The notes under the pieces were generated by a model, which saw only the letters and a program-made list of their open reading frames with translations, searched no databases and had not been told where the DNA came from. The translations under genes and the position numbers were made by a program. A DNA stretch of 64,000 nt from Candidatus Hodarchaeota archaeon. GTDB lineage: Archaea; Asgardarchaeota; Heimdallarchaeia; Hodarchaeales; Hodarchaeaceae. Shown here piece after piece: positions 3,898 through 59,631 of the stretch (the first letter of the stretch is position 1; each line of letters starts with the position of its first letter). The stretch is taken from NCBI GenBank assembly GCA_016840035.1, contig JAEOTC010000031.1, positions 15,917 to 79,916 of the forward strand. The letters are read 5' to 3'.

Positions 3898-4031
3898 TTT
3901 AGTTCAGTCATTTCTTACTTTTAATGGACAAACTCAATGGAGTTCGAGCTTCTAATATAGCTCTGATCAAAAGTTTTTTATTGAATTATGATTTTGTCCA
4001 TATAGAGATCTAAATTTTTGGTGAAAATAAA

Positions 4032-5231
4032 ATGCCAAGCTCAAAAGACTTTATTGAACTAGATGAACATTATGGTGCTCATAATTATCACCCCATACCT
4101 GTTGTAATTACCGAAGCCAAAGGGGTGTGGGTTTTTGATCCTGAAGGAAAAAAATATCTTGATTGTCTTTCAGCCTATTCTGCGGTTAATCAGGGGCATC
4201 TCCATCCGAAAATTGTTAAAGCTATTGAAGAACAGATGACTCGCGTTGCATTAACCTCTAGAGCCTTTCATAACGATCGTATGGGCCTTTTTCTGAAGCA
4301 TTTACTTGAAATATGCGGAGAAGGATTTGATATGGCCTTACCCATGAATACAGGAGCAGAAGCAGTTGAAACCGCGTTAAAAATGACACGTAAATGGGGT
4401 TATGATGTAAAGGGTATTGAAGAAGATAAAGCTGAAATTATCGTTTGTGAAAATAACTTCCATGGCCGAACTACAACTATAGTTGGCTTTTCTACAGATC
4501 CTGATGCAAACACAGGATTTGGTCCATTTACACCTGGATTCAAAATTATACCATATAATGATATAGAAGCACTAGAAAAAGCAATCACTCCAAATACTGT
4601 TGGATTTATGGTTGAACCGATTCAAGGAGAAGCAGGAGTAATCGTTCCCAAAGAAGGGTACTTACAGAAAGTTCGGGAAATTTGTACAAAAAATAATATT
4701 CTGATGATCTTAGATGAGATACAAACTGGTTTCTGTCGTACTGGAAAGATGTTTTGTCACCAGCATGAAGGTATAATCCCCGATGTAATGACTCTAGGTA
4801 AAGCATTGGGAGGAGGTTTACTTCCTGTTTCCGCAGTTGTCAGTAGAAAGGAAATTATGAAAGTTTTCACTCCTGGTTCACATGGTTCTACTTTCGGTGG
4901 CTTTCCATTAGCTTGCGCGGCAGGAGATGCAGCCCTTGATGTTCTTGTTGAAGAAAAACTTGATGAAAGGGCTAGAGACTTGGGAAACCTCTTCCTAAAT
5001 AAATTAAAAGAGATCGATCATCCACGTATTAAAGAAGTGCGAGGGAAAGGGCTTCTAACAGCAATTGAACTAAATGAAAAAGCAAGACCTTTTACACAAC
5101 AATTAATTGACAAAGGAATTTTAGCCAAGGAAACACATGATTATGCCATAAGATTTGCTCCACCTCTAGTAATCAAGGAAAAAGAAATTTTGTGGGCAGT
5201 GAATATTATTAAGGAAATTCTTGAAAGCTGA
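4032..5231 (+). CDS. rocD: ornithine--oxo-acid aminotransferase (class III PLP enzyme)
   Basis: GAHNYHPIP, DCLSAYSAVNQGH, NTGAEAVETALK, EPIQGEAG, DEIQTG, LGKALGGG, HGSTFGG. Confidence 0.95.
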   Translation: MPSSKDFIELDEHYGAHNYHPIPVVITEAKGVWVFDPEGKKYLDCLSAYSAVNQGHLHPKIVKAIEEQMTRVALTSRAFHNDRMGLFLKHLLEICGEGFDMALPMNTGAEAVETALKMTRKWGYDVKGIEEDKAEIIVCENNFHGRTTTIVGFSTDPDANTGFGPFTPGFKIIPYNDIEALEKAITPNTVGFMVEPIQGEAGVIVPKEGYLQKVREICTKNNILMILDEIQTGFCRTGKMFCHQHEGIIPDVMTLGKALGGGLLPVSAVVSRKEIMKVFTPGSHGSTFGGFPLACAAGDAALDVLVEEKLDERARDLGNLFLNKLKEIDHPRIKEVRGKGLLTAIELNEKARPFTQQLIDKGILAKETHDYAIRFAPPLVIKEKEILWAVNIIKEILES

Positions 5232-5322
5232 ATTACTTTGCTGGGGGGTTCTCACCTAAATCTTGAGCTTCGACGCAGTTCATTCTGCCTTTTTAATGGA
5301 ATTTAAGGCTAGGAAATGAAAA

Positions 5323-5745
5323 ATGATGAATTTAAAAGTCAAAAAGATTTCGAAAATGGCGAAAATTCCTTCAAAACATAATACAAATGATGCGGCATTT
5401 GATCTTTACGCAATTGAAGATTGTACGCTTCCTACAAATAGTACTGTTATTGTACACACTGGAATTTGCTTAGAAATTGAACCTGGGTTTTATGGAAAAA
5501 TTGAAAGCCGGAGCTCTCTTGCCAAAAAAGGGATTTTCTGCACTGCTGGAATTATTGATTCAGGCTATCGAGGAGAAGTAATGATTGTAATGAATAATCA
5601 TGGAAAAGAGCATCACTTCATCCAAAATGGACATCGTATTGCTCAATTGATCATTCACAAAGTAGAGGAGGTTCGAATCATTGAATCTGAAACTCTTGAT
5701 AATCAATCAGACAGAGGTGGAGGGTTTGGAAGTAGTGGGGAATAA
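5323..5745 (+). CDS. dut: trimeric dUTP diphosphatase
   Basis: AAFDL, SRSSLA, GIIDSGYRGE, RIAQL and RGGGFGSSG motifs I-V. Confidence 0.95.
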   Translation: MMNLKVKKISKMAKIPSKHNTNDAAFDLYAIEDCTLPTNSTVIVHTGICLEIEPGFYGKIESRSSLAKKGIFCTAGIIDSGYRGEVMIVMNNHGKEHHFIQNGHRIAQLIIHKVEEVRIIESETLDNQSDRGGGFGSSGE

Positions 5746-5774
5746 CTAAAAAGCTCTGTACTAACTTCCCATTA

Positions 5775-6065
5775 TTAAACGGAAACGATACGAAATTTCT
5801 GAGGATTTATTCGCTCAGAGTGGCATTCAGGACATTTATGAGGATCGCTAATCCGTCCTCTGCCAGGAAACACATAATTACAAGCTATGCATGATGCTGG
5901 ATTCACTTCAATTCTCTTATTGTCGTATTTAATTGTTTTTCGAACAGAATCTAAATCCATAGCCACAGTTTTAACTGAAGCTTTAGTATGATCAGATAAT
6001 TCTAGTATAGTCATCTTCTCATTCTTTGATAATAATTCAACTATTAATTCTCTTCGTGTTTTCAT
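5775..6065 (-). CDS. archaeal HTH plus Zn-ribbon transcriptional regulator (COG3357-like)
   Basis: TRRELIVELL...HTH, then CIACNY...CPECHSERI; GGAG lies upstream of ATG 6065. Confidence 0.8.
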   Translation of the reverse strand: MKTRRELIVELLSKNEKMTILELSDHTKASVKTVAMDLDSVRKTIKYDNKRIEVNPASCIACNYVFPGRGRISDPHKCPECHSERINPQKFRIVSV

Positions 6066-6264
6066 TTTCAGTAACTCCACGCATTTTAAGTTGGATATTA
6101 CAGATATTATGAATATCCTATTTCGAAATAAGTCAAGTTCCGCAAGAATAATATTAATTTAATAATAATGCATAAGGAATATTATTGTGATTTAATTATC
6201 ACCAACATTAATTAAATAATCCTAGGAAGATGATTTGGAACTATATATCATAAGGTGAATTCTC

Positions 6265-7635
6265 ATGCTAGAATCGATAATTACGATAGGAGTCGTCCTC
6301 ATTATTGTTTATTTCATAGTGTATGCATTATATTCCCAGAATATTAAAGCGGAGAGTGATTTTGCAAAAGATGTCTATTTTTTTCTAATACGTAGATATC
6401 CCACAACGAAAATTATCGATCAAGGAGGATTATCTTCAGATCCTATAATAGAAGCTTCTAATGCCGGTCCATTTAAATCTCTTGAAATAAAAGTGATCAC
6501 AAACAAAACAGGGGGAACCACTGATCGCGATCTCATACTAAGAGGGGTTATTGATAAAACTAAATTTAGTCAGTCAAGCAATGAACGATTAAACCTGCTA
6601 ATATCACCTGAGATCACATGGAGTGATTCATCATCAAGGGTAAAACTCGGAGACTCCCGATTCGACCAGCGATTTAAAATTAGTGCTGATAACTCTATCT
6701 TTGTCCACGATTTATTTCGAGAAAAAGAGCTAAGAGAGATGCTAAGAAACAATTACGATTTAGAAGCATTCAGTTTATACTGGTATCAGGACGGTACAAC
6801 AGTTATTCAGGTTAGAATGGAATCAATGACATCGAACAGCTTCTTAAACGCTTATAACATGGTTTTAGCAACAGTGGGTATCCTAAATCAAAGAGGATAC
6901 TTAATTAAACCTGGTAAAATTCCTGAAGAACCCGGTACTCAATTGTGGTCAGCTAAAACACCTTCTATTCATGCAACAGATTATTCAGAAGAAAAATATG
7001 TCCAAAAGTACCAACCTGAGGATACAACTTACCAAGTACAGGAATTACCAAAAATTAAACTTCACCCCCAACGAGACCAACGCAGATTAGATGAGAAACA
7101 AGGGATAAAACATTACGAAGAAGTTGACAAGAAAATTGATAGAATAGCAAATTCTACAGAAGTAAAGACTATTTCTGAGGATTTAATTTCCTTATTTACC
7201 TCAATTCGTTATCAAGTTAAGAATATTACATATTCTGACCACTCAGTTCAGTTAGAAACTTTCTCATCCCAATTAGAGGTTGTAAATGTTACATTTCCCT
7301 CGGTAGATCAGATTCTACTCTCAGGTGTGTCTATTCAAATCCCTCAAAATGACTTTTCGCTCCATATAACCAATACTCATGAGTCTCGTTCACCATCTTG
7401 GGAAAATCCATGGAAGGAAATTGATATAAAAGGAAATGAGTTTATTGTTAAACAGCTTAAACATCGTACCGCAATAGCAAACCGAATAAAGGAACTAGGA
7501 ACGATGAAAATTGATATTACAGGATCTAAAAATGGTATTAAATACGATATTCTGGGATTAAAATCAAAAGAAGGAATTACCATTGGTTATTCTTTACTTC
7601 TAGATTTAGTATGGTTTTTTGAGATGATAGAATAA
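6265..7635 (+). CDS. hypothetical protein with N-terminal membrane anchor
   Basis: 456-aa ORF with one N-terminal hydrophobic helix, GGTGA RBS, and two globular-looking halves joined by a P/E/Q-rich linker. Confidence 0.75.
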   Translation: MLESIITIGVVLIIVYFIVYALYSQNIKAESDFAKDVYFFLIRRYPTTKIIDQGGLSSDPIIEASNAGPFKSLEIKVITNKTGGTTDRDLILRGVIDKTKFSQSSNERLNLLISPEITWSDSSSRVKLGDSRFDQRFKISADNSIFVHDLFREKELREMLRNNYDLEAFSLYWYQDGTTVIQVRMESMTSNSFLNAYNMVLATVGILNQRGYLIKPGKIPEEPGTQLWSAKTPSIHATDYSEEKYVQKYQPEDTTYQVQELPKIKLHPQRDQRRLDEKQGIKHYEEVDKKIDRIANSTEVKTISEDLISLFTSIRYQVKNITYSDHSVQLETFSSQLEVVNVTFPSVDQILLSGVSIQIPQNDFSLHITNTHESRSPSWENPWKEIDIKGNEFIVKQLKHRTAIANRIKELGTMKIDITGSKNGIKYDILGLKSKEGITIGYSLLLDLVWFFEMIE

Positions 7636-45452: not shown

Positions 45453-46019
45453 GTGGTTCTTATCTTGTCCGCACCAAACGATATTCTATTTGAAATCCCT
45501 CATTATAGTCAATACAAAATTGTTGTCGCTGGCGACGCATTAGTCGGAAAAACACAACTTGTTTCCGTCTTTACTAAACGTGATTTTGAACATAAACCCA
45601 CTGCTGGAGCTGATATCTCTTTTATTAAGCTTACAAGTCCAAGTGAAGGAAAAAGTACTACTACAGCTATTTTTTGGGATCTCTCTGGACAACCTGCCTT
45701 CCACAAAGTTCGCCCGATTTTCTATGAAGGAGCTCATGCTGTAATCTACGTTTTTGACATTACCAGGGAAAGCACGGTACTTTCTCTTCCCAGTTGGTTT
45801 AAAGAAGTAAAAAAAGTACTTCCAGATAGTCCAGCTGTGTTGATTGGTAATAAAGTAGATTTAGAAGGCGATCGACAAGTTAGTGACGATATTGGACAAA
45901 GATTCGCTGATAAGATGCATGCTCAGTACTTCCCTACATCTGCAATCCAGAATAAAGGTGTGGTTGTAGCTTTTGCATCCGCTATTAGACGTGCTGTTTC
46001 ATATCGAGATCTAAGTTAA
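45453..46019 (+). CDS. Rab-like small GTPase
   Basis: GDALVGKT, PTAGADI, WDLSGQ, FYEGA, NKVD, TSA. Confidence 0.92.
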   Translation: MVLILSAPNDILFEIPHYSQYKIVVAGDALVGKTQLVSVFTKRDFEHKPTAGADISFIKLTSPSEGKSTTTAIFWDLSGQPAFHKVRPIFYEGAHAVIYVFDITRESTVLSLPSWFKEVKKVLPDSPAVLIGNKVDLEGDRQVSDDIGQRFADKMHAQYFPTSAIQNKGVVVAFASAIRRAVSYRDLS

Positions 46020-46030: not shown

Positions 46031-46699
46031 TTAATTTAATTGCTTTATCAATTCAGCAATCCGAGAATTAATATTCTTTAGCCTATTTGAACTTAATAGA
46101 TCAATATAGGAGATATGGTTTTTATCCTCATTCGTGTAATACTTCCAATTGGCTGCATACGGGTCACAAATGAATCCTTTTTTCGCCAATTTTTTTGTTA
46201 ATTGGCTAATAGTCCTTATCAGTTGAAGATCATCCTGTATTGTATCACCCTGAACTTCTTCAACGATTAGAGTAGGAAATTCTCTCTCGAAAGCTTCAAT
46301 TTTGGCAATTCCAATTACTTTTGGGGTGATAAACCGATACTTCGGTATTTCAGGCTCTAAATTGATTTTTTTGAGAGTAGATAAAAAATCATTGATACAA
46401 AAATAATGAATAAGTAATTGTGTGAGATGGCGAGAATAGTAAGGTTTGTACATCAATCTACCAACTTGTTCAGACGGAAAACTCCACCCAAAAAGAACGC
46501 TGGAACCTCCTGGATAAAATCGTGTCCCAATTAGTTTTTTCCCGAGTTTTTCTTTAATTATTTCGATTTTCTCGGGATTAAGAAATTGACCACGTGAGAA
46601 CTGAACAACACTCTCAACTAATTCAAGGTTTTTTTGGAGTGCATAGTAGGAATAGTTATTCTTAAATTCAGGAAGGATGCTAAATGTTGGGGGACACAT
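46031..46699 (-). CDS. atypical protein-kinase-like protein (RIO/Bud32/Kdo-kinase-like fold)
   Basis: In kinase order: Gly loop PGGSSVLF, beta3 Lys LMYKPY, TPKVIG, hinge LIVEEVQG, catalytic loop CDPYAAN (DxxxxN), metal-binding YIDL. Confidence 0.68.
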   Translation of the reverse strand: MCPPTFSILPEFKNNYSYYALQKNLELVESVVQFSRGQFLNPEKIEIIKEKLGKKLIGTRFYPGGSSVLFGWSFPSEQVGRLMYKPYYSRHLTQLLIHYFCINDFLSTLKKINLEPEIPKYRFITPKVIGIAKIEAFEREFPTLIVEEVQGDTIQDDLQLIRTISQLTKKLAKKGFICDPYAANWKYYTNEDKNHISYIDLLSSNRLKNINSRIAELIKQLN

Positions 46700-46711: not shown

Positions 46712-48121
46712 CTATACCCAATCTGCCGAGTCTATTTTTGTTGGAAGATATGTACCAGTCATATATCGCCAGTTCTTACTTGCTAGCGCTTGAATTTCTG
46801 CTTTTTGTTTTGTATTCTTCATGATGAGAATTTGCTTTTCCCATTCAGGTCTGGATTTAACAAAATCCTCTTTCAATAAATCATCAGCACGCTTAATGTC
46901 ATTATCTGTCATTTTAATAAGTACGGATTTTGGAATTTGATATTCTTCAATATCAGAAGGTAATAAGCCTAACCACCGAATATCAGGAACCGCTAGCTCC
47001 ACACTCTCAAAGCTTAATGCTTTACTTCCAATGGAATATACCCTTAAGATATCTAGTCCGTATGGATCAGCATCTAAGAATCCTAAAATTGGAATTTTCA
47101 ACTCTTGGTACATTTTCTTAATAAATAGTCTAGTGGCCATATCAGGTTGTCCAGAGGCGGTAATTAGAATACAAGGTACGTAATTAAAGAATTTATCTTC
47201 TGCTAAATCTTGGAAAACTGCATCCTTCTCAATTACGAGAATAAATTCCGCATCGCTTTCAAAATTATCTACTTGATCTAGCATTGGTGTAATCGCGTGG
47301 CCACCTAATCCCTTTGTACAATCGATTTGATCCCCACCTTCTCTGAATGTCAATCTACCAATGACTTTTCCTTTAGCTGTTGCAATGACATTTAATGAAT
47401 TTCTGGACACACGTAATAATGCTCCAAGATCCTCAATTAATCCGTCTGAAACTCTTTGATTTCCAAATAGGTTCACATCACGATAAAATAGATGCCTTTT
47501 TGTGGCGTGTTTATCTGTTGCAAGAATCTCAGTTACATATCTCATTAATCCAGTTAGTTGAACCACACTTTGAACACTACTCAGATGACGAAATTGTCTA
47601 TCAACAACATTACTTCCCAGTAGCACCATTCGTGAATTATTATCATATCCAACATTCTCAGAACTTCGAGATGGAATCCTAAATGCGGCGTTCTTAGGAT
47701 CTTCAGCTATTTCATCCAAAAATTCCAATGCTACTCTATTTAGACGGGATCTTGCTTCTTCTGCTGGAACATTATCTACTTTTAGGATGGAAACAGGTAA
47801 GTCCACTTCGGAATCGGTAACATCTTCCCTAATTTTTCTAAGTCCCGTTAAGTTAATTTTTCGACGAATCTGTAAAACTACGTCTCCTTCTTCCGTCATA
47901 TCCCACAATTTAGAAATGTTCTGTTTCGTTAGGACTTCAAAGGTTTTTGACTTCTTCAAACCGTAAAAAATCTGTAATTTTTCAGATTTAAGGCCAAGAG
48001 TACTCTTAATAAGCCCAATAATTCCTTGAATTGTATCTTTTTGTTCCATCTCAACTTTTATTACTTTATTTGTAAAAGAATAGTCTTCTAAAACAATATT
48101 ATATTTACGTTTCTCGGACAT
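46712..48121 (-). CDS. top6A: DNA topoisomerase VI subunit A (Spo11 family) with N-terminal extension
   Basis: ATKRHLFY catalytic Tyr motif, Toprim VIEKDAVF, GQPDMATR, DADPYG, KAEIQAL; 469 aa. Confidence 0.93.
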   Translation of the reverse strand: MSEKRKYNIVLEDYSFTNKVIKVEMEQKDTIQGIIGLIKSTLGLKSEKLQIFYGLKKSKTFEVLTKQNISKLWDMTEEGDVVLQIRRKINLTGLRKIREDVTDSEVDLPVSILKVDNVPAEEARSRLNRVALEFLDEIAEDPKNAAFRIPSRSSENVGYDNNSRMVLLGSNVVDRQFRHLSSVQSVVQLTGLMRYVTEILATDKHATKRHLFYRDVNLFGNQRVSDGLIEDLGALLRVSRNSLNVIATAKGKVIGRLTFREGGDQIDCTKGLGGHAITPMLDQVDNFESDAEFILVIEKDAVFQDLAEDKFFNYVPCILITASGQPDMATRLFIKKMYQELKIPILGFLDADPYGLDILRVYSIGSKALSFESVELAVPDIRWLGLLPSDIEEYQIPKSVLIKMTDNDIKRADDLLKEDFVKSRPEWEKQILIMKNTKQKAEIQALASKNWRYMTGTYLPTKIDSADWV

Positions 48122-48122: not shown

Positions 48123-51100
48123 TCAATTTCCTCCCATGTAAGAGTCTAATTGACCCAGAACATCTGTTTTTCTACGTAAACGTATATTTGATCGTATTTT
48201 TTTGATTTTCGCGGCCGATAATCCATGTGTTTTCTTCAAATCATCATCAGGCCAGTAAATAAAATCAATTATCCTCGTTACCCCTTTCTTTACTAATTCT
48301 TGAGCCGATGGTATTGGAAGCTCTGCTAATTTTACAACAGGTGTTTCTAGGTCAGAGATACAGGCATTCAATAATTTCCCTGGTACTAACTCATTAGGTA
48401 TTAACTCCGCATACCTTTTGCCATAGAAATACAAATCCTCAATATTTGTAATTCCAAACTCACCTAATGGTTCGTAGTATTGCTCAGAGAGGCGGATAAA
48501 ATTCTGGATTGGTGTTCCGAGATTCTTCTTACGTTTCAGGTCTGTCAGATTAACCTTTCTATATTTAGAAATTTCGTATCTCTTAACTTCAAGAATTTCT
48601 GCTAATTCATCCTTATTCCAGAATAAAAACTCTATGATCGAAGTCAACCCCACATTAAATAGGAGTGGGATCTTTTCAGGAAAAGTTTCCTTTACAAGGG
48701 GTAATACCGCTACAGGTTTTTCTAATACACGTTTGACTCCATCGATTGCTGGTATAAGGGATTTTGGGCATCTTTCTAAATCTAGTCTAAAGTACAGATC
48801 AATAACGTTATCAACGCCAAGTTCCTGGATTTTTGAGAGTTGATTGGGAGTGAAAGCTCGCAGAGATGATAGTTTTACCCTGAACTCTGACTCTGTTTTT
48901 TTGTGTGTTAAAATATCTACTAAATTTACCGAGTTCCTGGCAAAATTATATGTTTCCTCGGATAATAAATTAGTTGGTCCTTCTAATTGAGAAAATTCAG
49001 TCTGAATTAGATTATAAACTGATGTAATACCGTTGAACGCAAGTGGAACTACATTAGAGGAGGGTACAAGTGAGTAGTAAGCAAGTGATGAGTTCAAGGC
49101 ATCTCGTAGACCATTTAATCTAGATTTAAATTGGTCAGATGCATCGATTGTTTCGATCTCTATGAAGAGAAGATCTTCTAAAGTATTAACATTATGAGAC
49201 GACAATTCATCAAAATCAATAAACCCAGCCTCAACGACACTAGATATAGATATTTCAGTGTCAAATGTACTTCCTGTGGCCTTAAAATCAAAGCTTTGCT
49301 TAAGCTTATTCACCTCTTCAGTCTTCATCCGTAAAATAGTTGATATTCCATCATTAGGCCCAGAAAACCAAGTGGAGAGAGTATTAATCCCCGAATTTGA
49401 CAATTTTCTTAACTCTGCAACTTGAAAATCTTCTGAAAGTCTGTTTATTGGACTATCAAAAATTTGGAGAAATTCGGTTACTCCTTCTAGTTGGGTAACA
49501 ATTGAACTAAACATAATTAATGATTGTAGTGAAGTAATATTCTTGTCAGAAAGACTTTCGATTGTTTTAGAGGGTAATTGATCCGAGAATTTTGTTAAAG
49601 GTATTGCTTCTTCCTCTAGCTTCTTCATTAGTGTAGCAAATGTAATATCGTTGAGAACAGAGCGTATTTTTGGGAAGGATGCCGAAACAAGTGATGCCAA
49701 ATCTCGATGGGTTAATTTAATGAAGTCACCTACATGGAGCACAGATTTTTCCTTAAGCGGGAAGAACCATTCTACTGGAAGTGAGGGAATAAAACTGATA
49801 GGTATTGATAATAGTTGTTTTAGCTCCTCAAAATTTAAGGTGTCTAACTCCGAGTAAAAAGTTTCAGGAGACTGGTCTAATATCGTAGTCAACTTTTCTA
49901 TGCCAGTGGAATAAGCATCTCTTATTGTATCTATTTTCTTTTGTTTTAATAGTTTTACACGTTCATTATTTGCCCCCAGAACTAGGTATAGGGGAACAGA
50001 TAAGATTGTAAATAGTTCACTCCACAGATCAGATGTAATTCGGATTATTTTCTCTTTTTGTTTTTTCAAGAATAATGTCTCATCAATGCTGGCTAGTAAG
50101 TCATATATGGTTCTTAATTTCTTATCCTTGATTTTGGTTAAATAATCAGATGGAAATTTTATTTTATCCACAGAAAGTCCTTTTAATAAACTTATTATCT
50201 CATTGATTCGAATAGATTCCTGAATTTTCTTTATTCTATCAATTTCAACCCCAGTTTTCTGATTCAAATCCTCCCATGAATCTATCATCAAATCAAAAAT
50301 TGTAAATATGTTCTTTTTATGAAATGCGTTAACTTCAGATGAATTAATGATTGTACTTGTCTCAATAGGCATTTCAAGTACTAATCGAGCATCGAGTATG
50401 GTTTGCCATTCCAGATCACTATCCTCTATCGTCTTAGGAGTAGCTGTATAATAGAGGTCAGCCAAACTTTCGATTCCATATCGGGCAAATTTCCTAACGG
50501 TGTTTTTATCGAATAATGAGATTTTAGTTAAGGGGATCATCTTTTCCTCCTTAATTGTCTTGATATTTGTAAAGTTCAAATCTTGTTTCATTGTTTTCAG
50601 TACTTCTGAATCTATCTCAATTATATTAGTAAGTTGTTCATCTGAAGTGGTTAAAAAGTCGTAAATTGAGATAATATTCTCTTCAGCCAAAGAACGGTTT
50701 TGTTTTCTAGATAGACCTTCGATAATAGAAGCAGAGGTCTCTGTAGACTCCCTCAATTTTAGGAGATTGACTTTCTTCCGAAGATTCTCGACATTCTCTG
50801 GAGGTGTATCCAAAACATTTGACAGTTCGTTTGGCGATGATATCAAAAAGCGTAGAATTGTGTCAAGTCTATAATTAACAAGTTTATCCACATATTTCTG
50901 GGGAATAATACCGTTGAGATAAGTGATAGGGAGATCAAGTGATTCAACACTTTTCTTGACATAGGGAAAATCTAAATCATCTTCCTCATCTAACATATCC
51001 TCATTTGCACTAAAGTACAGATCCTCTACAGTTTCGATACCATAATTAGTTAACGTCGAAATTGTCTTACGATTGTAACCAGCAACTTGTTCTAAGGGCA

Positions 51101-54100
51101 TACCATGCTCTTTGATTGCAACAGCTTGTTTGAGTTCATCTATTTGTTTAAGTGTAACTTTTAGAATGGTTTTTAGCTCATTCGGAGGCCAGTAAATTAG
51201 TTTAATGATCTGATCAATTCCATTATTAGCTAAACCCTCCAAACCATCATGAGAAACCCGTATTTGCGATTTATCAGAACTACCCTGTAATTGAATCATA
51301 GCAATTGGGGTTTCTAGTATTCTTTGATATCGTTCAATTTTTTTCCATTTAACACCCATTACTCCGAATGTTTGCTTATCCGCACAAAAATAAACGCTTT
51401 CTACTGTGGAATATCCCCTAGATTTTAAAGTTTTCATTTCAGCAGCAGTAAATACCCCGAGGTCTATCAGAGCCATTCCTTCGGAAAATTTTGGTATGTT
51501 GTTGGTTAATTCTGATACGTAATCTGCATCCCGGCCTAATATTCCAGCAATTTCATCTGGAGACCATGTGAGAAAATCAATGAATGACTTTATCCCACCA
51601 GCTCTCAAACTATTTACCCATCTTGGCCGAATATGCGATAAACGGGTTATAGGGGTATTAAAGAGCTCAGTTAGCCTATTAGTTTCTTTTTGGCTTAAGT
51701 TTAGATCTTTTATCTCTTCGTCCTCATAAGGAAGACTGTAATATAACTCTTGGACGCTCAGGCCTGATTCAAATAATCTAACCCATGATTTTTGTTCTAG
51801 ATTATTCTTTAGGATGGAAATCGGACGTTTCTTCATCTCGATTTGATTTTGTATTCCCTCGAAAGTAATTTTGCTTTTAATATCCTCAATAATTTTATAA
51901 GAAATCCCTGATTTTCTGTGTAAATCATAATCTGGCCAGATCAGGAAATTAATAACTTTAGATATTCCCAAATGATGCAGTAGCCTATAGTATTTACTGG
52001 GGATTGGTAAATAACATATAGGTTCATTTAATTGCCCTAACATCTCTTTAACTTTATCAGATAGGATTTTGGGCTTGATCTTGTCTTGTGAGACGACTGA
52101 AATCAACTCTTCAAGACACAAAATATCTAAAGACTCTAATTTACCGGCAATAGAATTATCTAGAAGACTAATTGGTGTTCCATAAGTTCGTTTTATTGTT
52201 TCTAATACTAGTGGGTCCATTCCTTCTATTTTTCGTAATTCCTCTGTCGAATGACTAATGAAGTCAAAAATTGTAGATATTCCATTTTGAATTAGAACTC
52301 GTTCTAACTCTAAATCGAGCCAATATGCTCTTTTAATAGGTACTGGATCAAACGCTGCATTAATCTCTTCAAGAATTTCATCTTGTTTAAGTAATATTAA
52401 AGAATCTATCAACCCTCGTACAATGAGTAGCTCCTTTTCATCAGTTAATAGAAAATCAATGAAACCTTGAACATTTAATCTTTCCAAATCAGATATCATT
52501 GATTTCTGAATTCCTGGGATTCTAAATAATGATGATTCATCATTATACGACTGTAGAATCTCCTTCAGTTTATTCTTAGACTGAACAATTAAATTATCTA
52601 TTAGCTCGTTCAATTCTGCAAGCTTTTCAGAGGGCGAATTCAGAAAATCCTTGATTTTCGAGATTTTTCTACCCCGCAATTTGGGTGTAACCTTGTAATC
52701 CATCCAGTCAAACGTCGAAGCACCTATCACCTTTTCTGGATCTATATATTCTCCTTTCACCCCCGCACGAATTTCTTCTTTTGCGTTTTCAATCAAACGA
52801 ATTGCTAATTTTGGCATGGAGGATAGTTTTTCAGGGAACGATACGAAGTAGCCTAAAATAGTACTGATTTTTGCACTTTTCAAAACCTTTTCTATATCGC
52901 TTGTTAACCAGGGGAGAAGATTCAAGGCGAAAGTATCTTCAGAAGCAAAATTGAGAAATTCATCAATTGCTTTAAGCTTTGTCTCGTAAATAAGCTTCTC
53001 AGGAAAATCGTCCACTTCACGAAGCTGTGATGTTGGTGTAGAGAAGAAATCAAATGTGTTTACTATCCATCGTTTATTAAAAGCCTTATGGATCGTGTTA
53101 CTCGTTCTATACTTCGAAAAATCTCGCTCAATTCCTTTAGAGAAGAATTCAAAATCCCGAATTATTGGAGAACGATATGTTTGTTCTTGTTTAGTTACAG
53201 TCTTTCTTACGATTGCATCTATCCTTTCCACTGACATCCCAGTGATAGCATTTAGTTCTGGGACAGGTGTTCGTAAAAAATGGTAGATTGTTTGGATGCC
53301 ATTTTCTACAAGTTTAAGGTGAATATCCATAGGAAGCCATTCACCAACTGTAGATATTTGAGGACTAGGAGGGTACGATCTTCTTACTAGTCGTGGGATG
53401 GCTGATGCAAGCGCTTTCTGTAATTTGGAAATCTCCTCTCCTGAAGATAACAAATAGGGAGAATTTTCGGTTGTTAAAATGTGTGATAAGTTTTGAATTA
53501 CCCTTGGGGCTGCGCTCTCAAATCGAGATTGTCTCTGTCTTTCCCTTCTTTCTCGTTCGGCTCTTCCAAGATGTTGACCTAATCCCCTTGCTAATTTTTT
53601 CAAGACACGGTTGATCTGATTACGAAGTTCATCAACATCTGCGATATACTCTTTGCTTGTCTCAGGAAAAGGAATTTTGGAGGAAACCACTGATACTACA
53701 ATTGCAATAGGTGCTTTGTTGATATTAATCTTATAATTCTTCCAGTTCATTTTCTGAACACATTTAGAGATAATATCATTTCCCGCACCAAACAGTAAGG
53801 GGATTCTATTGGCAAAACGGTAAATTTTTGGACTTGCACCCCTAGCTCCTTCCTCTTTTGTTAAATTCGGACCACCATAAGCTAAAGCTGCCTCTACAAT
53901 AAAAGGATGACCACTATAGGCAGAAATTTCACCAAAAGTAGCTTTTACAAATTGAGGGGATAATTCTTTACTGATCCCCTTTTCCAATAATTCATATCCA
54001 AGGGGAGATAATGAATCGCCACTAGGTCGTTTAAAAGAGAAATATTTCTTTTCTTTCTTCTTTGTTTTATCGCGTTCAGGGACTGTGAATCCTTCATGAA

Positions 54101-55079
54101 CGATTCTTCGAATTGCAGTGGCGCTAAGTTTCTTAGGGTCTGTTTGATGCTCAATCTTAACAAAATCTAAAAAATCACGAGCTGTCTTAGGGCCAATTCC
54201 TTGAAAATGATCTTGTAAGAAAATCTCCATTGTCTCACTGCTAGTGACACTTAATTCCCGTTTAAATTGCGTAATATCTGTTCCCCAAGGATGAACCTTC
54301 GCAATTTGAGGATAGTTTGGCATCTCCTCGACAACACGTTCCAATTCAATTGGAGATTCAGAATCAGGATACTGGATGTAAAAACTAGCATATGGAGTAA
54401 TCATTGCTAGTTGAGAGAAATAGTCGTAAATATAACGAGAAGCGAGATTCCAAGCTCCAGTGAAGGTGACAGATACTTCAGTACCAGATTCATCTATCGC
54501 TTCTGCGGTATTCTGCGGAATTTCACGTTGAGTGAGTATTATCGGCTCATTCTCGGCTAAGTTAATCATCAACTCATGATAACTTGTAAAATCTTCGTTT
54601 ATATATTTGGATTTAATGACTAGAGGTAAGTCCACTGATGACATCGCATTTAATAATACCATCTTCGCCCCTAGACCGAATCGTCCTCGTGATTGTCGAG
54701 CTCCATAATTACTGCCTGTTAGAACTCTACCAAAAAGAGGAGGTATAAATTCTGACTGGATTCCACTCCCATTATCCTTGACAGTTAATCTGAGGAAGTC
54801 TAGTTTTTCAGAGGACTCGAAAGAGCTTATATTGAGTAGCTTTGCGATTTCTTCTTTCTTTAATTTCTTAATTGTGACATGGAGTTCTGGTAAATGACCC
54901 ATCCTTTCTGCAGCATCTAGTCCATTTTCAACTAATTCACGAACACTTGTGAAGACTACCCTCATACTGTTATCGAAACCCGCGATTGCTTTGTTATCCT
55001 GGAAAAAGTCTGCTGCGGATCTTCTTACTACCTTTTCACTAGCAATTCCTTTCTTATTCGACTTTGAGGCAGGTACCAT
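48123..55079 (-). CDS. top6B: giant DNA topoisomerase VI subunit B with ~1750-aa C-terminal repeat region
   Basis: AGFDNSMR, GHKL ELVENGLDA, DNGSG, QSRGRFGLG, SGTEV; H2TH FQGIGPKTA; transducer GHPFIVEA, RFANRIPL, SKEYIA; single 2318-aa ORF. Confidence 0.93.
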   Translation of the reverse strand: MVPASKSNKKGIASEKVVRRSAADFFQDNKAIAGFDNSMRVVFTSVRELVENGLDAAERMGHLPELHVTIKKLKKEEIAKLLNISSFESSEKLDFLRLTVKDNGSGIQSEFIPPLFGRVLTGSNYGARQSRGRFGLGAKMVLLNAMSSVDLPLVIKSKYINEDFTSYHELMINLAENEPIILTQREIPQNTAEAIDESGTEVSVTFTGAWNLASRYIYDYFSQLAMITPYASFYIQYPDSESPIELERVVEEMPNYPQIAKVHPWGTDITQFKRELSVTSSETMEIFLQDHFQGIGPKTARDFLDFVKIEHQTDPKKLSATAIRRIVHEGFTVPERDKTKKKEKKYFSFKRPSGDSLSPLGYELLEKGISKELSPQFVKATFGEISAYSGHPFIVEAALAYGGPNLTKEEGARGASPKIYRFANRIPLLFGAGNDIISKCVQKMNWKNYKININKAPIAIVVSVVSSKIPFPETSKEYIADVDELRNQINRVLKKLARGLGQHLGRAERERRERQRQSRFESAAPRVIQNLSHILTTENSPYLLSSGEEISKLQKALASAIPRLVRRSYPPSPQISTVGEWLPMDIHLKLVENGIQTIYHFLRTPVPELNAITGMSVERIDAIVRKTVTKQEQTYRSPIIRDFEFFSKGIERDFSKYRTSNTIHKAFNKRWIVNTFDFFSTPTSQLREVDDFPEKLIYETKLKAIDEFLNFASEDTFALNLLPWLTSDIEKVLKSAKISTILGYFVSFPEKLSSMPKLAIRLIENAKEEIRAGVKGEYIDPEKVIGASTFDWMDYKVTPKLRGRKISKIKDFLNSPSEKLAELNELIDNLIVQSKNKLKEILQSYNDESSLFRIPGIQKSMISDLERLNVQGFIDFLLTDEKELLIVRGLIDSLILLKQDEILEEINAAFDPVPIKRAYWLDLELERVLIQNGISTIFDFISHSTEELRKIEGMDPLVLETIKRTYGTPISLLDNSIAGKLESLDILCLEELISVVSQDKIKPKILSDKVKEMLGQLNEPICYLPIPSKYYRLLHHLGISKVINFLIWPDYDLHRKSGISYKIIEDIKSKITFEGIQNQIEMKKRPISILKNNLEQKSWVRLFESGLSVQELYYSLPYEDEEIKDLNLSQKETNRLTELFNTPITRLSHIRPRWVNSLRAGGIKSFIDFLTWSPDEIAGILGRDADYVSELTNNIPKFSEGMALIDLGVFTAAEMKTLKSRGYSTVESVYFCADKQTFGVMGVKWKKIERYQRILETPIAMIQLQGSSDKSQIRVSHDGLEGLANNGIDQIIKLIYWPPNELKTILKVTLKQIDELKQAVAIKEHGMPLEQVAGYNRKTISTLTNYGIETVEDLYFSANEDMLDEEDDLDFPYVKKSVESLDLPITYLNGIIPQKYVDKLVNYRLDTILRFLISSPNELSNVLDTPPENVENLRKKVNLLKLRESTETSASIIEGLSRKQNRSLAEENIISIYDFLTTSDEQLTNIIEIDSEVLKTMKQDLNFTNIKTIKEEKMIPLTKISLFDKNTVRKFARYGIESLADLYYTATPKTIEDSDLEWQTILDARLVLEMPIETSTIINSSEVNAFHKKNIFTIFDLMIDSWEDLNQKTGVEIDRIKKIQESIRINEIISLLKGLSVDKIKFPSDYLTKIKDKKLRTIYDLLASIDETLFLKKQKEKIIRITSDLWSELFTILSVPLYLVLGANNERVKLLKQKKIDTIRDAYSTGIEKLTTILDQSPETFYSELDTLNFEELKQLLSIPISFIPSLPVEWFFPLKEKSVLHVGDFIKLTHRDLASLVSASFPKIRSVLNDITFATLMKKLEEEAIPLTKFSDQLPSKTIESLSDKNITSLQSLIMFSSIVTQLEGVTEFLQIFDSPINRLSEDFQVAELRKLSNSGINTLSTWFSGPNDGISTILRMKTEEVNKLKQSFDFKATGSTFDTEISISSVVEAGFIDFDELSSHNVNTLEDLLFIEIETIDASDQFKSRLNGLRDALNSSLAYYSLVPSSNVVPLAFNGITSVYNLIQTEFSQLEGPTNLLSEETYNFARNSVNLVDILTHKKTESEFRVKLSSLRAFTPNQLSKIQELGVDNVIDLYFRLDLERCPKSLIPAIDGVKRVLEKPVAVLPLVKETFPEKIPLLFNVGLTSIIEFLFWNKDELAEILEVKRYEISKYRKVNLTDLKRKKNLGTPIQNFIRLSEQYYEPLGEFGITNIEDLYFYGKRYAELIPNELVPGKLLNACISDLETPVVKLAELPIPSAQELVKKGVTRIIDFIYWPDDDLKKTHGLSAAKIKKIRSNIRLRRKTDVLGQLDSYMGGN
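48170..53365 (-). repeat. about 28 degenerate protein-level tandem repeats (~55-70 aa, HhH-like) within top6B
   Basis: Recurrent pattern xPI..L.........L...GI.TI.DFL......L..I.G.....I..I, e.g. TPVVKLAELPIPSAQELVKKGVTRIIDFIYWPDDDLKKTHGLSAAKIKKI and VPIKRAYWLDLELERVLIQNGISTIFDFISHSTEELRKIEGMDPLVLETI. Counted by eye. Confidence 0.85.
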
Positions 55080-57587
55080 TTAAGCATCTCCCTTGTTAGA
55101 ATTACCACTAGCTATTAACGCAACGGATGAAATTTTCACACCACTCTCCTTTTCCAAGCGCATTAAAGTGACTCCAGAGGTTGCACGGCCTATAGCACGT
55201 ATGTCTTTCATCTGCATCTGTATTAATTTCCCATCATTTGCCACCATTAATAGAAGATCGTCCTCTGTAACACTTTTAACTGCTATCACATCACCATTTC
55301 GTTCTGTTACTTTAATATTGATAACTCCTTTTCCATTACGTCGTGTTACACGATATTTATCAAAAGTAGAGCGTTTTCCATAACCATTTTCGCAAACAGT
55401 TAATAAAGTTCGATTTTCATCGACAATAGCTAAGTCTACAACAGAATCATCTGAATTCAGTCTAATTCCCATAACTCCCAAACTGCTTCTCCCGACTACA
55501 CGCACATCTGACTCTTTGAAACGAATGGCCTTTCCCTTCTTAGTAGCTAAAATGATTCCTCGATTTCCATCTGTGACCTTTGCACCAATTATGTTATCAT
55601 CTTCCCGTAGTTTTTGTGCAATAATCCCAGTAGAGCGAATATTTTCGTATTCTGAAAGAGAAGACTTTTTTATTAACCCATTTTTGGTCGCTAAAATCAG
55701 GTAATGGTCTGGAACGAATTTTTTAACACGAATCATCCCTACAATCTTATCACTCCTATCCATTCTAAGTAAATTAACAATATTAACCCCTTTTGTCACT
55801 CTTTGCCTAGAAATGGGAATTCCAAATCCACGAACACGATAAACACGCCCTTGCACAGTGAAAAATAAGATGGTGTCATGAGTTGAAGCAACAATCATTT
55901 CCTGTAGAAAATCATCCTTTCCGATTTCCATTGATTTGATTCCTTTTCCCCCACGGTGCTGTGAATTATACACATCAGTAGATATTGATTTAATATATCC
56001 ATTTGATGTTAATGTAATCACTATATCTTCTTCTGTGATGAAATCCTCTTCAGTCTTATCTGTCCAATTTTCATATCCATCAGAGTCATCTAAAACAATC
56101 ATTGTTCTTCTAGGATCACCATATTTCGATTTAATAGTATCAATTTCGGATACAATAATCCCCATGATCCGTTCTTCACTGGCTAATATATCTTCATAAT
56201 CCTTTATTGCTTGAAGAACTTCTTTATATTCTTGTAAAATTTTATCCCGATCAAATCGAGTTAAACTTCTGAGTGGTAACGCGAGAATATCCTTCGCTTG
56301 GATTTCAGACAAAGAAAACCTGTTTATCAAAGCGGATTGCGCTTCAGATGCGTTAGAAGATCCTCTGATGAGCTCCACTACATCATCAAGATTCTCAACA
56401 ACAATTTTTCTCCCCTCCAAAATATGTGCTCTCTCTCTGGCCTTCTTTAGATCGAACTCAGTTCTTCTCACAACAACTTCATGCCTATGATCAATGAATT
56501 GAGTAAGAAGCTGCTTCAAATTCAGATTTTTTGGTCTTATCTTGACCTCATCACCAACTTTGGCATCCACAAGAACCATATTCTTGATAGAATAAGAGGT
56601 CTGCATCGGTGTAAATTTAAATAAGCGATTTAACACTACTTCAACATTAGCAGATTGTTTTAGGTTGACAACAATACGTGTACCACGAATGATATTGGAT
56701 TCATTTTTCACGCTACCAATCTCTGGAAATTTTCCTGCTTCCTTCATCCGTTCAATTATATCGACTAAACCACGATGTTCTATCGTATCCTGCCGTTTTA
56801 CTAAATATGGAACCTCAGTAATAATAATGCGAGTTCGATTCTTCTTTTCCTCTATATCGTACTTTGCACGTAAGATTACATTACCAGTTCCAGTATGATA
56901 AGCCCGTTTGATCCCTCCAGTTCCAAAGATTACACCTCCAGTCGGAAAATCAGGACCTGGGATGTACTTCATTAACTCTGATATACTAATATCTGGGTCT
57001 TTTATAACAGCTTTCACTCCGTCTAAAACCTCACTTAGATTATGAGGAGGCATGGAGGTAGCCATTCCCACGGCAATTCCCATAACTCCGTTAATTAGAA
57101 GATTAGGAATTTTTGCTGGAAGCACTACTGGTTCCTTATCTAAACCATCAAAATTGTCAATTAGATCCACAGTATTCTTGTTGATGTCCATTAACAGTTC
57201 ATTTGCGATCTCCGCCATTCTTGCTTCCGTATATCGTTGTGCAGCTGCAGGTTGTCCGTCCATACTGCCAAAATTTCCTTGACCTTGGATCAACGGATAT
57301 CGGAGGGAAAATGGTTGTGCTAATCGTACTAATGCATCGTAAACGGCATTTCCTCCATGAGGATGATATTTTGCACTCGTTTCCCCGATCGTACGTGCAC
57401 ATTTTCTGGGTGGTCTATTATGAGTCAAACCCAAGTTGTGCATAGCCCACAAGATTCGCCTATGTACAGGTTTTAAACCATCTCTTACATGTGGAAGAGC
57501 TCTACTTGTAATTACAGACATCGAATACTCCAAATAGCTTTTGGACATAGTTTTTTCAATAGGAGTGATTCTAATATTACTACTCAT
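55080..57587 (-). CDS. gyrA: DNA gyrase subunit A
   Basis: RALPHVRDGLKPVHRR, AAQRYTEARM (catalytic Tyr), GIAVGMAT, GyrA-box QHRGGKG and C-terminal pinwheel blades; ATG 57587 preferred. Confidence 0.96.
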   Translation of the reverse strand: MSSNIRITPIEKTMSKSYLEYSMSVITSRALPHVRDGLKPVHRRILWAMHNLGLTHNRPPRKCARTIGETSAKYHPHGGNAVYDALVRLAQPFSLRYPLIQGQGNFGSMDGQPAAAQRYTEARMAEIANELLMDINKNTVDLIDNFDGLDKEPVVLPAKIPNLLINGVMGIAVGMATSMPPHNLSEVLDGVKAVIKDPDISISELMKYIPGPDFPTGGVIFGTGGIKRAYHTGTGNVILRAKYDIEEKKNRTRIIITEVPYLVKRQDTIEHRGLVDIIERMKEAGKFPEIGSVKNESNIIRGTRIVVNLKQSANVEVVLNRLFKFTPMQTSYSIKNMVLVDAKVGDEVKIRPKNLNLKQLLTQFIDHRHEVVVRRTEFDLKKARERAHILEGRKIVVENLDDVVELIRGSSNASEAQSALINRFSLSEIQAKDILALPLRSLTRFDRDKILQEYKEVLQAIKDYEDILASEERIMGIIVSEIDTIKSKYGDPRRTMIVLDDSDGYENWTDKTEEDFITEEDIVITLTSNGYIKSISTDVYNSQHRGGKGIKSMEIGKDDFLQEMIVASTHDTILFFTVQGRVYRVRGFGIPISRQRVTKGVNIVNLLRMDRSDKIVGMIRVKKFVPDHYLILATKNGLIKKSSLSEYENIRSTGIIAQKLREDDNIIGAKVTDGNRGIILATKKGKAIRFKESDVRVVGRSSLGVMGIRLNSDDSVVDLAIVDENRTLLTVCENGYGKRSTFDKYRVTRRNGKGVINIKVTERNGDVIAVKSVTEDDLLLMVANDGKLIQMQMKDIRAIGRATSGVTLMRLEKESGVKISSVALIASGNSNKGDA

Positions 57588-57609
57588 CTTTAATACGTCC
57601 CTCAAGTCA

Positions 57610-59631
57610 TTAGATATCTAAATTTTGCACTTCCAACGCGTGAGTCTCGATGAACTCTCGCCTAGGGGCAACTTCCTCTCCCATCAACGTAACGAACATT
57701 CGTTCTGCATCAATAAGATTTTTTCTTGTAACCTGGAGAAGGGTTCGTTTTTCAGGATCCATTACAGTTTCTCGTAGCTGAATGGGATTCATTTCACCAA
57801 GACCCTTGAATCGACTGATCTCAGGTCTACCACCCCAAGTTTGAATAATCTCGTCTCGTTCTTGTTCGGAAAGTACATAAATTTCCTTATTCCCTTTTTT
57901 AACTCGGAATAATGGCGGTTGAGCGATGTAGAGATAACCTTCATCAATTAATTCGGGCATATATCTGAAGAAAAAAGTTAATAGTAAGCAGACGATATGA
58001 TGACCATCGATATCGGCATCCATGAGTAACACAATCTTATGATAACGAACTTTCTCTATTTTGAAATGTTCCTTATAACTCGCTCCAATAGCGCGAATAA
58101 TTTCAAGAATTTCCTTGTTTTTCATTGCCTTTTCTAATCGGGCTTTTTCAACGTTAATGACTTTTCCCCGAAGGGGTAAAATCGCTTGAAACTCTGAAAA
58201 ACGTCCTTCTATTGCACTACCCCCTGCAGAATCACCTTCGACAAGGAATAACTCGCGTTTAGCTGGATCTGAAACAGCGCAATCCACTAATTTTCCTGAT
58301 CCTTTTCCTTGTGTTTTTCTGACAGCTTCTCGAATTTGTCGAAACCTCATTCGAAGAGTTGCAGCAGCTTCACACTTTTCAATAATACTCCTGGAACTAT
58401 CAGGATGTTCATCAAGAAACTTAAGCACATTTTCATATACACAACTCTCTACAACCCCTTTCACTTCGCTATTGCCTAATTTACTTTTTGTTTGGCCTTC
58501 AAATTGAGGATTCATTATTTTTAATGAGACTACGGCAACCAGTCCTTCACGTACATCATTTCCAGTGAATATTGACCTTTTTTCCTTTAATCCCTTCTTT
58601 AGATGAGAATTTTTAATGAGTTGCTCATTCTTCAATACATATGCATTTAATGCTCTTGTAAGGCCTGATTTGAATCCAGATAAGTGTGTTCCCCCATGCC
58701 TTGTATTTATATTATTAGTAAAAGTGTTAATTAAATCTCTCTCTGATCGATCATAAGCTAGGGCAACTTCTACTTGCATTTTCTCAATATTTTCGTCAAA
58801 ATAAGGCATATCATCGTGAACACGATTAGTTACGAGTTGATCAACATAAGCCTTAATTCCCCCATCAAAATGGAAAATCCATTCATTTACTGGCAAATCT
58901 TCGTCAGTAACCTCATCATCAACTTCTACATCAGGACTTTCATCTTGAACAGATTCAGTTTGTGGTTCGGAATCTGAAGGTTTATGCTTTCTTTCATCAA
59001 TTAGTGTTATTGTAAGCCCTTTATTCAAAAAGGCTAATTCACGTAGACGATTACGAATCGTAACAACTTCAATTTGCGTTACTTCGAAGATCTCAGGGTC
59101 TGGAATGAAGGTTATATGAGTACCACTCTCGTAATCCCATTCCTCCTCAATAGTAATGACACCATGAGAAATTGTTTCACCTCTCACGTACTCTTGCATC
59201 TGAACTAAGTTGTCTCTTTTAACTTTTACCTGCATCCAACTAGATAATGCATTCACAACAGCTATCCCAACTCCATGGAGTCCACCACTAACCTTGTAAG
59301 ACTCATGATCAAATTTCCCCCCTGAATGCAGTCGTGTGGTAACAAGTTCCAGAGAAGAAATATTATAATCGGGGTGAATTTCAGTAGGTATTCCCCTACC
59401 ATTATCTTGAATAGTAATTGATTCTTGTCCATGCTCTGTCTGACTTAGTATCACTTTAATACTATCACAAAACCCAGCCATTGCTTCATCGACTGAATTA
59501 TCGACAATTTCCCAAACCAAGTGATGAAGCCCATTTTCATCAATACTTCCAATATACATAGCAGGTCGGCGACGAACCGCTTCAAGACCTTCTAGAACCT
59601 GTATACTACTTGCACCATATTCACTTGACAA
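57610..59631 (-). CDS. gyrB: DNA gyrase subunit B
   Basis: LEGLEAVRRRPAMYIG, EIVDNSVDE, GGLHGVG, VEGDSAGG, PLRGK, DADIDG, FKGLGEM, terminal NLDI. Confidence 0.96.
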   Translation of the reverse strand: MSSEYGASSIQVLEGLEAVRRRPAMYIGSIDENGLHHLVWEIVDNSVDEAMAGFCDSIKVILSQTEHGQESITIQDNGRGIPTEIHPDYNISSLELVTTRLHSGGKFDHESYKVSGGLHGVGIAVVNALSSWMQVKVKRDNLVQMQEYVRGETISHGVITIEEEWDYESGTHITFIPDPEIFEVTQIEVVTIRNRLRELAFLNKGLTITLIDERKHKPSDSEPQTESVQDESPDVEVDDEVTDEDLPVNEWIFHFDGGIKAYVDQLVTNRVHDDMPYFDENIEKMQVEVALAYDRSERDLINTFTNNINTRHGGTHLSGFKSGLTRALNAYVLKNEQLIKNSHLKKGLKEKRSIFTGNDVREGLVAVVSLKIMNPQFEGQTKSKLGNSEVKGVVESCVYENVLKFLDEHPDSSRSIIEKCEAAATLRMRFRQIREAVRKTQGKGSGKLVDCAVSDPAKRELFLVEGDSAGGSAIEGRFSEFQAILPLRGKVINVEKARLEKAMKNKEILEIIRAIGASYKEHFKIEKVRYHKIVLLMDADIDGHHIVCLLLTFFFRYMPELIDEGYLYIAQPPLFRVKKGNKEIYVLSEQERDEIIQTWGGRPEISRFKGLGEMNPIQLRETVMDPEKRTLLQVTRKNLIDAERMFVTLMGEEVAPRREFIETHALEVQNLDI

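Follow-up and report, generated by a model that had tools for sequence, protein, structure and literature searches.

Described forms of topoisomerase VI (Topo VI) are compact. The B subunits of S. shibatae (2ZBK chain B, 530 amino acids, aa) and M. mazei (2Q2E chain B, 621 aa) have at their C-terminus one or two helices or a single Ig-like domain of ~100 aa. Long C-terminal trains of helix-hairpin-helix (HhH) domains are, to our knowledge, otherwise found on one topoisomerase only, Methanopyrus kandleri Topo V, a type IC enzyme with tandem (HhH)2 domains, some of which carry apurinic/apyrimidinic and deoxyribose-phosphate (AP/dRP) lyase repair sites. In archaea, lineage-specific C-terminal extensions of Top6B, and the C-terminal domain of M. 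mazei Top6B, accompany gyrase, and M. mazei Topo VI acts preferentially in decatenation (PMC9348778). Here we describe the top6B gene of a Candidatus Hodarchaeota archaeon (class Heimdallarchaeia), which lies in a 64,000-nucleotide stretch of contig JAEOTC010000031.1 (assembly GCA_016840035.1, positions 15,917 to 79,916; hereafter the window). The names carried by near-identical proteins likewise point to the Hodarchaeales (Heimdallarchaeia, Asgard archaea). Its product resembles canonical Top6B over the whole core, and the gene likewise precedes top6A. However, this one extends 1758 aa beyond the point where canonical proteins end, adding 28 predicted HhH-type domains and a conserved end peptide, and its A subunit, unlike canonical ones, appears to have an added ubiquitin-like domain (Ubl).

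The top6B open reading frame (48123..55079, minus strand, as are all features below unless noted) starts with ATG, runs for 2318 codons without interruption and ends with the stop codon at 48123-48125. The first 560 residues (53400..55079) make up the catalytic core, with GHKL ATPase, H2TH and transducer regions. Over aa 12-541 the NCBIfam model NF003218/PRK04184 scored 434.6 bits (cut-off 274), and the transducer (aa 352-516; 53532..54026) matched Pfam PF09239 (Topo-VIb_trans) with 172 bits (cut-off 24); TIGR01052 scored 347.3, slightly below its cut-off of 380.7. By phmmer, aa 13-552 aligned to S. shibatae Top6B (2zbk_B) with an E-value of 1.5e-80, and the M. mazei protein gave 5.2e-65. The N box (E-L-V-E-N-x-L-D-A), the G1 (D-N-G-x-G-I) and G2 (G-x-x-G-L-G) boxes, the transducer W-K-N-Y (WKxY) and the switch-lysine motif S-K-E-x-I-A are all in register with 2zbk_B. 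The core is basic, with a net charge of +9 and an isoelectric point (pI) of 9.1. Profiles and motifs place the protein in the Topo VI family, with strand passage as its predicted activity, and it is the sole Topo-VIb_trans match in the genome (4.3 Mb, 87% complete). Compared with S. shibatae Top6B, 16 inserted residues in its GHKL domain separate the N box from the G1 box (aa 73-95; ~54795-54863).

Beyond the core, the same frame encodes an arm of 28 HhH-type units of ~62 aa each (aa 561-2299; 48183..53399). A hidden Markov model (HMM) trained on the tail itself recognized 24 units, and a unit profile trained on all related giant proteins recognized 26 and left two stretches of unit size unassigned (aa 957-1025 and 1065-1148); the total of 28 combines these 26 with one unit for each such stretch. 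Pairwise identity among units is 13-35%. No DNA repeats were found in the tail-coding DNA, which argues that the array is ancient and has been neither collapsed nor expanded by assembly. Two flavours of unit can be distinguished: a common one with the pattern D-F-L ... E-L, and a more conserved T-V-E-D-L-Y-F type represented by units 11, 13, 16, 23, 25 and 27.

Several families point to the same relatives of these units. Over the whole protein, RAD51D_N (PF21794) and HHH_5 (PF14520) reached 77.4 and 50.2 bits, both above cut-off, although each total is built from many weak units, with every single stretch below cut-off. RNA_pol_A_CTD (PF03118) was also matched, and relatives have precomputed matches to PF26169 (HHH_XRCC3_RpoA). 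Among PDB sequences, the unit profile found NusA AR1/AR2 (E 0.0056) and the RpoA alpha-CTD (E 0.0098) as its best matches; phmmer with the whole tail found nothing at E <= 1 in the same sequences. The NusA AR and RNA polymerase alpha-CTD domains are acidic, HhH-class protein-docking domains that have a G-x-x-T-[VL]-E-[DE]-L signature in common with the 'DLYF'-type units, but they occur in one or two copies, serve in transcription and have no link to a topoisomerase.

We modelled units 11-14 (aa 1196-1440; 50760..51494) with AlphaFold2, using a 41-row alignment. The model (pLDDT 81.4, pTM 0.58) has 4-5 helices per unit and includes one unit that the self-trained HMM had missed. All Foldseek E-values for it were above 0.1, because each match is one small domain, and we used VIA structural re-alignment in their place. 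The best match was the N-terminal domain of RAD51D (9q2a_B, Z 8.7, root-mean-square deviation, rmsd, 2.1 over 59 residues); further matches were 9q25_D (Z 7.8), yeast Rad51 (3lda, Z 6.6) and RAD51C (8gj9_B, Z 6.5). RAD51-family N-terminal domains cover whole units with Z 6.5-8.7 and rmsd 2.0-2.5, and they rank first both among the Foldseek candidates and in an exhaustive search of 48,161 chains. Next come the HhH domains of Y- and X-family polymerases, NusA AR, RNA polymerase alpha-CTD and UvrC, followed by SAM domains. The model thus suggests that the units adopt a RAD51-N-type, HhH-class fold of the five-helix SAM-like/(HhH)2 kind, an assignment of fold class only. In both sequence family and fold, the N-terminal domains of RAD51, RadA, Dmc1 and the RAD51 paralogues (PF21794, PF26169) are the best match to single units. 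However, these proteins have one such domain each on a RecA-type ATPase, whereas here 28 stand in tandem on a GHKL ATPase.

An earlier sequence-only reading of this DNA had proposed an intact GHKL-H2TH-transducer core followed by about 28 tandem HhH-like domains resembling Rad51-N, NusA-AR and RpoA-CTD. The core motifs and profile scores bear out the first part; HMM-based unit finding resolved the array to the expected number, and Pfam, the profile search and the predicted HhH-class bundles of single units agree with the proposed resemblance.

The giant architecture recurs well beyond this assembly. We found 26 genus-level orthologues (2296-2330 aa) that are collinear with Top6B over 2348 alignment columns and have a constant number of units. 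Core identity across them is 77-96%, against 52-83% for the tail. The core-tail junction (~nt 53400) is identical in all 26 independently assembled orthologues, single-contig genomes included, which speaks against the chimeric join that the sequence-only reading had allowed for. In the sole pair with usable values, synonymous sites being saturated in most pairs, the ratio of nonsynonymous to synonymous substitution rates (dN/dS) came to 0.038 in the core and 0.077 in the tail; this pattern indicates purifying selection on the tail. A length-restricted search returned 82 Top6B homologues of 1274-4057 aa, mostly annotated as Top6B of Hodarchaeales, Heimdallarchaeota or Kariarchaeaceae, and units 11-14 have positional orthologues in distant families with proteins of up to 3900 aa. 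Searched against 1.84 billion representative proteins, the tail gave 38 matches, nearly all giant Top6Bs or pieces of them. Stand-alone tail proteins were considered and rejected: the two tail-only matches that we examined (P0100 and P0111) span entire 3-kb contigs and so appear to be fragments. We are confident that the giant Top6B is a real protein of secure architecture and identity, predicted to be a functional, specialised Topo VI B subunit. Its array is joined to the core at the meeting point of the transducer with the A subunit and the DNA gate, and with the Ubl-bearing Top6A it should form an A2B2 enzyme that has two arms of ~1750 residues each.

The conservation of the arm extends to the charge of its individual units, which is maintained across the 26 orthologues. 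Unit 13 (aa 1322-1381; 50937..51116), of the 'TVEDLYF' type, is both the most acidic and the most conserved: its net charge is -9 here and -9.2 +/- 0.9 on average in the orthologues, its mean column conservation (0.87) equals that of the core, and 26 of its 60 residues are invariant. Units 23 and 5 are also acidic (mean net charges of -7.3 and -5.5). Units 1, 8 and 11 are basic (about +2 each), as is unit 26 (+2.7). The last unit, unit 28 (aa 2240-2299; 48183..48362), has a G-L-S hairpin, a net charge of ~+4 and a mean column identity of 78%; together with the end peptide it carries +4.7 +/- 1.3 across orthologues.

The C-terminal peptide (aa 2300-2318; 48126..48182) consists of a basic RLRRK followed by D-V-L-G-Q-L-D-S-Y-M. 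The genus motif R-L-R-R-K-x-D-V-h-G-x-L-D-S-Y-M is conserved in all 26 genus-level orthologues, and 31 of 77 giant forms terminate in a similar h-x-x-[YF]-[MF] motif. Other clades end in a Q-K-S-L-x-x-[FY] sequence resembling a PCNA-interacting peptide (PIP; 4 of 77) or in long Lys/Ser/Thr-rich basic tracts. The L-G-Q-L-D-S-Y-M end occupies the hydrophobic and aromatic positions of the PIP box, but it lacks the Gln at position 1 of the canonical pattern Q-x-x-[LIVM]-x-x-[FYW]-[FYW]. Co-folding the last 79 residues with the organism's own PCNA gave a score of 0.16 (mark 0.32), which counts neither for nor against docking. The PCNA of this genus (G000:C167:33731-34591) has a C-terminal tail of ~35 residues that is extremely acidic, being rich in Asp/Glu with Tyr/Trp, and this tail is absent from the PCNAs of other families of the class.

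To place the giant form among its relatives, we surveyed 400 Asgard genomes through the transducer family and recorded open-frame lengths. Top6B frames are 2312-2346 aa in this genus and 2194-4305 aa in other families of the Heimdallarchaeia (up to 4341 aa in the protein search); family f7 of the same class has two copies, of ~500 aa and 1108-1121 aa. This survey, which the sequence-only reading had called for, places giant forms of 2194-4341 aa in the Heimdallarchaeia families outside f7. In the other classes listed, frames are ~500-680 aa long. A member of another Asgard class, family f28, has a giant Top6B of 2286-2297 aa in addition to a canonical copy of 557 aa. Unit numbers are 7-9 in the f7 form and 26 to ~60 in the other Heimdallarchaeia families (2190-4341 aa). 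Two Loki-like families (f19 and f20) have called Top6B frames of 902-969 aa and open frames of 1013-1156 aa. Their core-homologous region is stretched over ~700 residues, which suggests insertions, and they stand apart from the HhH-tailed clade.

In a quick maximum-likelihood tree of the core (IQ-TREE with SH-aLRT support), all 22 HhH-tailed giant proteins fell into one clade (SH-aLRT 98), whose sister was the 1118-aa form of f7 (support 100); a tail-less protein of 543 aa came next (99). The tree indicates that the HhH-tailed Top6Bs share a single origin. The f28 giant protein nests within the giant Heimdallarchaeia clade, suggesting transfer or old paralogy. In f28 it stands in a tandem of a 557-aa top6B, a 387-aa top6A, a gene for a 968-aa HEAT-repeat protein, the giant top6B (2289 aa) and a 463-aa top6A with Ubl (G307:C6:513000-529000). 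The 1118-aa Top6B of f7 (G082:C84:113000-124000, 3577-6933, minus strand) has 7-9 units that match HHH_5 (97 bits) and IMS_HHH; its tail is basic (+14, pI 9.3) and its HhH matches are more canonical than those of the giant tail. It is paired with a 400-aa Top6A without Ubl, and the same genomes have a canonical Top6B/Top6A pair (~505 aa). Because this sister form has a short, basic and more canonical tail, it is likely that a short HhH tail of the DNA-binding type came first and was later expanded to 26 to ~60 units.

The A subunit appears to have changed along with the arm. The top6A gene (46712..48121; 469 aa) starts 1 nt past the top6B stop, and its product matches Pfam TOP6A-Spo11_Toprim (213.6 bits) and TP6A_N (64.4 bits). 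R209, Y213, E298, D350 and D352 are among its invariant alignment columns; we take these residues to include the catalytic tyrosine and the acidic Toprim positions. Its N-terminus (aa 1-88; 47858..48121) is predicted to form a ubiquitin/PB1-like beta-grasp domain. An AlphaFold2 model of residues 1-130 (pLDDT 71.9) has the beta-grasp topology beta-beta-alpha-beta-beta-alpha-beta, and Foldseek matched it to PB1 (1oey_A, E 4.8e-4); PB1, the USP15 UBL, SUMO and ubiquitin were all found with probability 1.00 and TM 0.6-0.74. By sequence, the domain of this Top6A reaches only E 0.13, and the f28 orthologue passes the Pfam cut-offs of Rad60-SLD (29.8 vs 23.8) and ubiquitin.

An extra N-terminal segment of ~85 residues is present in the Top6A adjoining each of the three giant Top6Bs that we examined and is missing from Top6As paired with B subunits of 500 or 1118 aa. 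Top6A open frames measure 462-506 aa in every listed genome of families f1-f6, which leaves room for the Ubl in the families with a giant Top6B, and 376-413 aa in f7.

A second type II topoisomerase accompanies HhH-tailed Topo VI in nearly every genome searched. Here it is gyrase, encoded in the same gene string: gyrB (57610..59631) comes first, behind an AT-rich spacer of ~250 nt, and is followed by gyrA (55080..57605), top6B, top6A and orf222, closely packed with intergenic gaps of 4, 0, 1 and 12 nt, so that the gyrA stop abuts the top6B start. GyrA has a DNA_topoisoIV match of 491 bits in Pfam and six C-terminal blades. GyrA was found in this genome and in 58 of 60 other f1-f6 genomes that are at least 80% complete (59 of 70 in the whole search). 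None of nine f7 genomes has it; f7 and f28 instead encode a second, canonical Topo VI pair. Outside the window, this genome has another GyrA-like open frame (1096 aa; G000:C17:504-3173, minus strand) in which the family match is split between profile positions 1-93 and 92-431, the pattern expected of a gyrA interrupted by an intein; several related genomes show matches split in a similar way.

Villain et al. 2022 (PMC9348778) described Top6B extensions that, like the arm, lie past the transducer in genomes that also have gyrase, and the division of labour discussed there applies here too, with gyrase in the same gene string. However, those extensions are single globular domains, HhH arrays are unmentioned, and the f28 giant form occurs without gyrase.

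Taken as a whole, mechanism included, we read this enzyme as a specialised Topo VI with a tether-and-docking arm that works beside a second topoisomerase, a reading that we regard as evenly balanced between right and wrong. As to the mechanism, we infer, with confidence that reaches an even balance at best, that the arm is a mixed structure, part multivalent tether and part docking platform. Each arm would emerge beside the DNA gate. The basic units nearest the core (1-4) and those at the tip (26, 28 and the RLRRK peptide) could hold duplex DNA or chromatin independently of sequence, and the conserved acidic units 5, 13 and 23 may, in the manner of NusA AR, dock proteins or else regulate the enzyme itself. 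Topo VI would in this way be kept concentrated on the chromosome as a dedicated decatenase or crossing resolver, with overall supercoiling set by the second type II topoisomerase, here presumably the co-transcribed gyrase. Such a mixed tether is in keeping with what has been proposed for C-terminal Top6B extensions in archaea that have gyrase, and with the preference of M. mazei Topo VI for decatenation (PMC9348778).

Several observations weigh against this reading. The tail as a whole is acidic (net charge -29, pI 5.47), unlike the basic core and unlike a classical non-specific DNA-binding array, and the median tail charge across 77 giant proteins is -1.6 per 100 residues. The glycine of the second hairpin is present in only 7 of 24 units and that of the first in 13 of 24; a hairpin of the G-h-[SDE] type is retained in units 1, 5, 6, 8, 10, 17 and 28. 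For helical domains this small, Z-scores of 6-9 lie in the middle range, and we therefore limit the claim to the fold class and exclude function from it. Despite the giant form, GyrA is absent from all four f28 genomes, so the link to gyrase is non-obligatory; a strict rule that the giant tail requires gyrase was considered and is ruled out by the two of these genomes that are 100% complete. Moreover, the co-occurrences represent few independent evolutionary events and are no statistical proof. The sequence-only reading had favoured a DNA-wrapping or processivity arm. This is not established and is partly weakened by the acidic tail, the scarcity of hairpin glycines, the NusA AR match and the fact that the acidic unit 13 is the most conserved; a mixed arm fits better.

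The arm could instead serve mostly as a scaffold for protein-protein contacts, in the way of NusA AR or the RNA polymerase alpha-CTD, with DNA contacted by the core only. We consider this the most serious alternative, though an unlikely one, and are just as doubtful about its candidate partners, which would be the replisome, segregation or chromatin factors, gyrase, or the ubiquitin-like domain of Top6A. The net acidity of the tail, the fact that its most conserved unit is also its most acidic, the degenerate hairpins and the top PDB sequence matches of the unit profile would all fit a scaffold, as would the appearance of a ubiquitin/PB1-like interaction domain in Top6A together with the giant arm. 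However, the units at both ends of the arm have a conserved basic charge, the short tail that resembles the ancestral state is basic with more canonical HhH motifs, and the Lys-rich basic ends of many relatives suggest contact with nucleic acid.

It is tempting to go further than a tether-and-docking arm and to speculate that, in the archaeal class nearest to eukaryotes, Topo VI has turned into a machine anchored to the chromosome, whose two arms of 28 to ~60 domains, with the Ubl/PB1-like domain of Top6A, would bridge or scaffold DNA, capture crossings and recruit partners. We think this improbable as it stands, and say the same of two companion ideas: that the enzyme might play in a prokaryote the part that eukaryotic topoisomerase II plays through its scaffold function and its chromatin-tethering C-terminal region, and that its evolution may have gone hand in hand with that of a second type II enzyme, to which the control of supercoiling passed.

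Still less probable, in our view, is that the arm is a spacer or self-regulator, in which acidic units would mimic DNA and fold back on basic parts, or the chain would set the distance to an anchor. The conserved alternation of acidic and basic units, the basic core (pI 9.1) and the pTM of 0.58 for four units, which suggests some defined packing between units, are compatible with it. Yet a pure spacer would have no need of a fixed unit order, of positional orthology across families or of single units conserved as strongly as the core.

By analogy with Topo V, the arm might also carry an additional enzymatic activity (AP/dRP lyase) that couples topology to base-excision repair. The precedent of tandem HhH domains on a topoisomerase is an analogy only, and the HhH domains of Pol X and Y-family polymerases are among the fold matches, but we identified no lyase-type motif, and the units resemble RAD51-family N-terminal domains best. 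We know of no catalytic role for these domains and hold this explanation to be very improbable. The sequence-only reading had likewise named Topo V, as an unrelated topoisomerase with a long HhH tail: the long C-terminal HhH-class train is common to both and stands as an analogy only, and the core is indeed unrelated, being type IIB here and type IC in Topo V. Furthermore, the units here are ~62 aa long and RAD51-N/alpha-CTD-like, and the tail is net acidic, unlike Topo V. Topo V is not among the best 50 structural matches of either VIA search, although absence from such a list leaves similarity possible.

That the giant frame is an assembly chimera, a pseudogene or a sequencing-error fusion of two genes can practically be dismissed, given an architecture and junction common to 26 collinear orthologues and ~80 related giant proteins from many assemblies (single-contig genomes included), purifying selection on the tail, DNA without repeats and the status of this gene as the only Top6B of its genome.

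In the open-access papers and preprints that we searched, we found no description of this architecture, as the sequence-only reading had supposed. Neither an HhH array on Top6B nor a Ubl on Top6A is mentioned in Villain 2022, Brinkmeier 2022, Allen 2024 or Garnier 2021, nor in a 2024 review of archaeal DNA topology, a 2025 study of the Asgard replisome, or the Hodarchaeales and Njordarchaeia papers. The charge pattern, the predicted ubiquitin-like domain of Top6A, the short-tailed sister form and the association with a second topoisomerase are new here.

Set against the compact forms known, the B subunit of the sampled Heimdallarchaeia has reached 4 to 8 times its normal size, and a ubiquitin-like domain appears to have been added to the A subunit, with both changes apparently under purifying selection. 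If the arm does tether the enzyme to chromatin or to partners, it would show how a topoisomerase can be specialised by modular addition of domains, would provide a testable case of the division of labour between gyrase and Topo VI, and would bear on the growing complexity of chromosome-handling machinery near the origin of eukaryotes. Single HhH trains may also serve as processivity or tethering tags.

The gene string closes with orf222 (46031..46699), for which no family match was found in Pfam or NCBIfam. A small GTPase (TIGR00231 small_GTP, 71.5 bits) is encoded convergently on the plus strand (45453-46019), facing the end of the operon.

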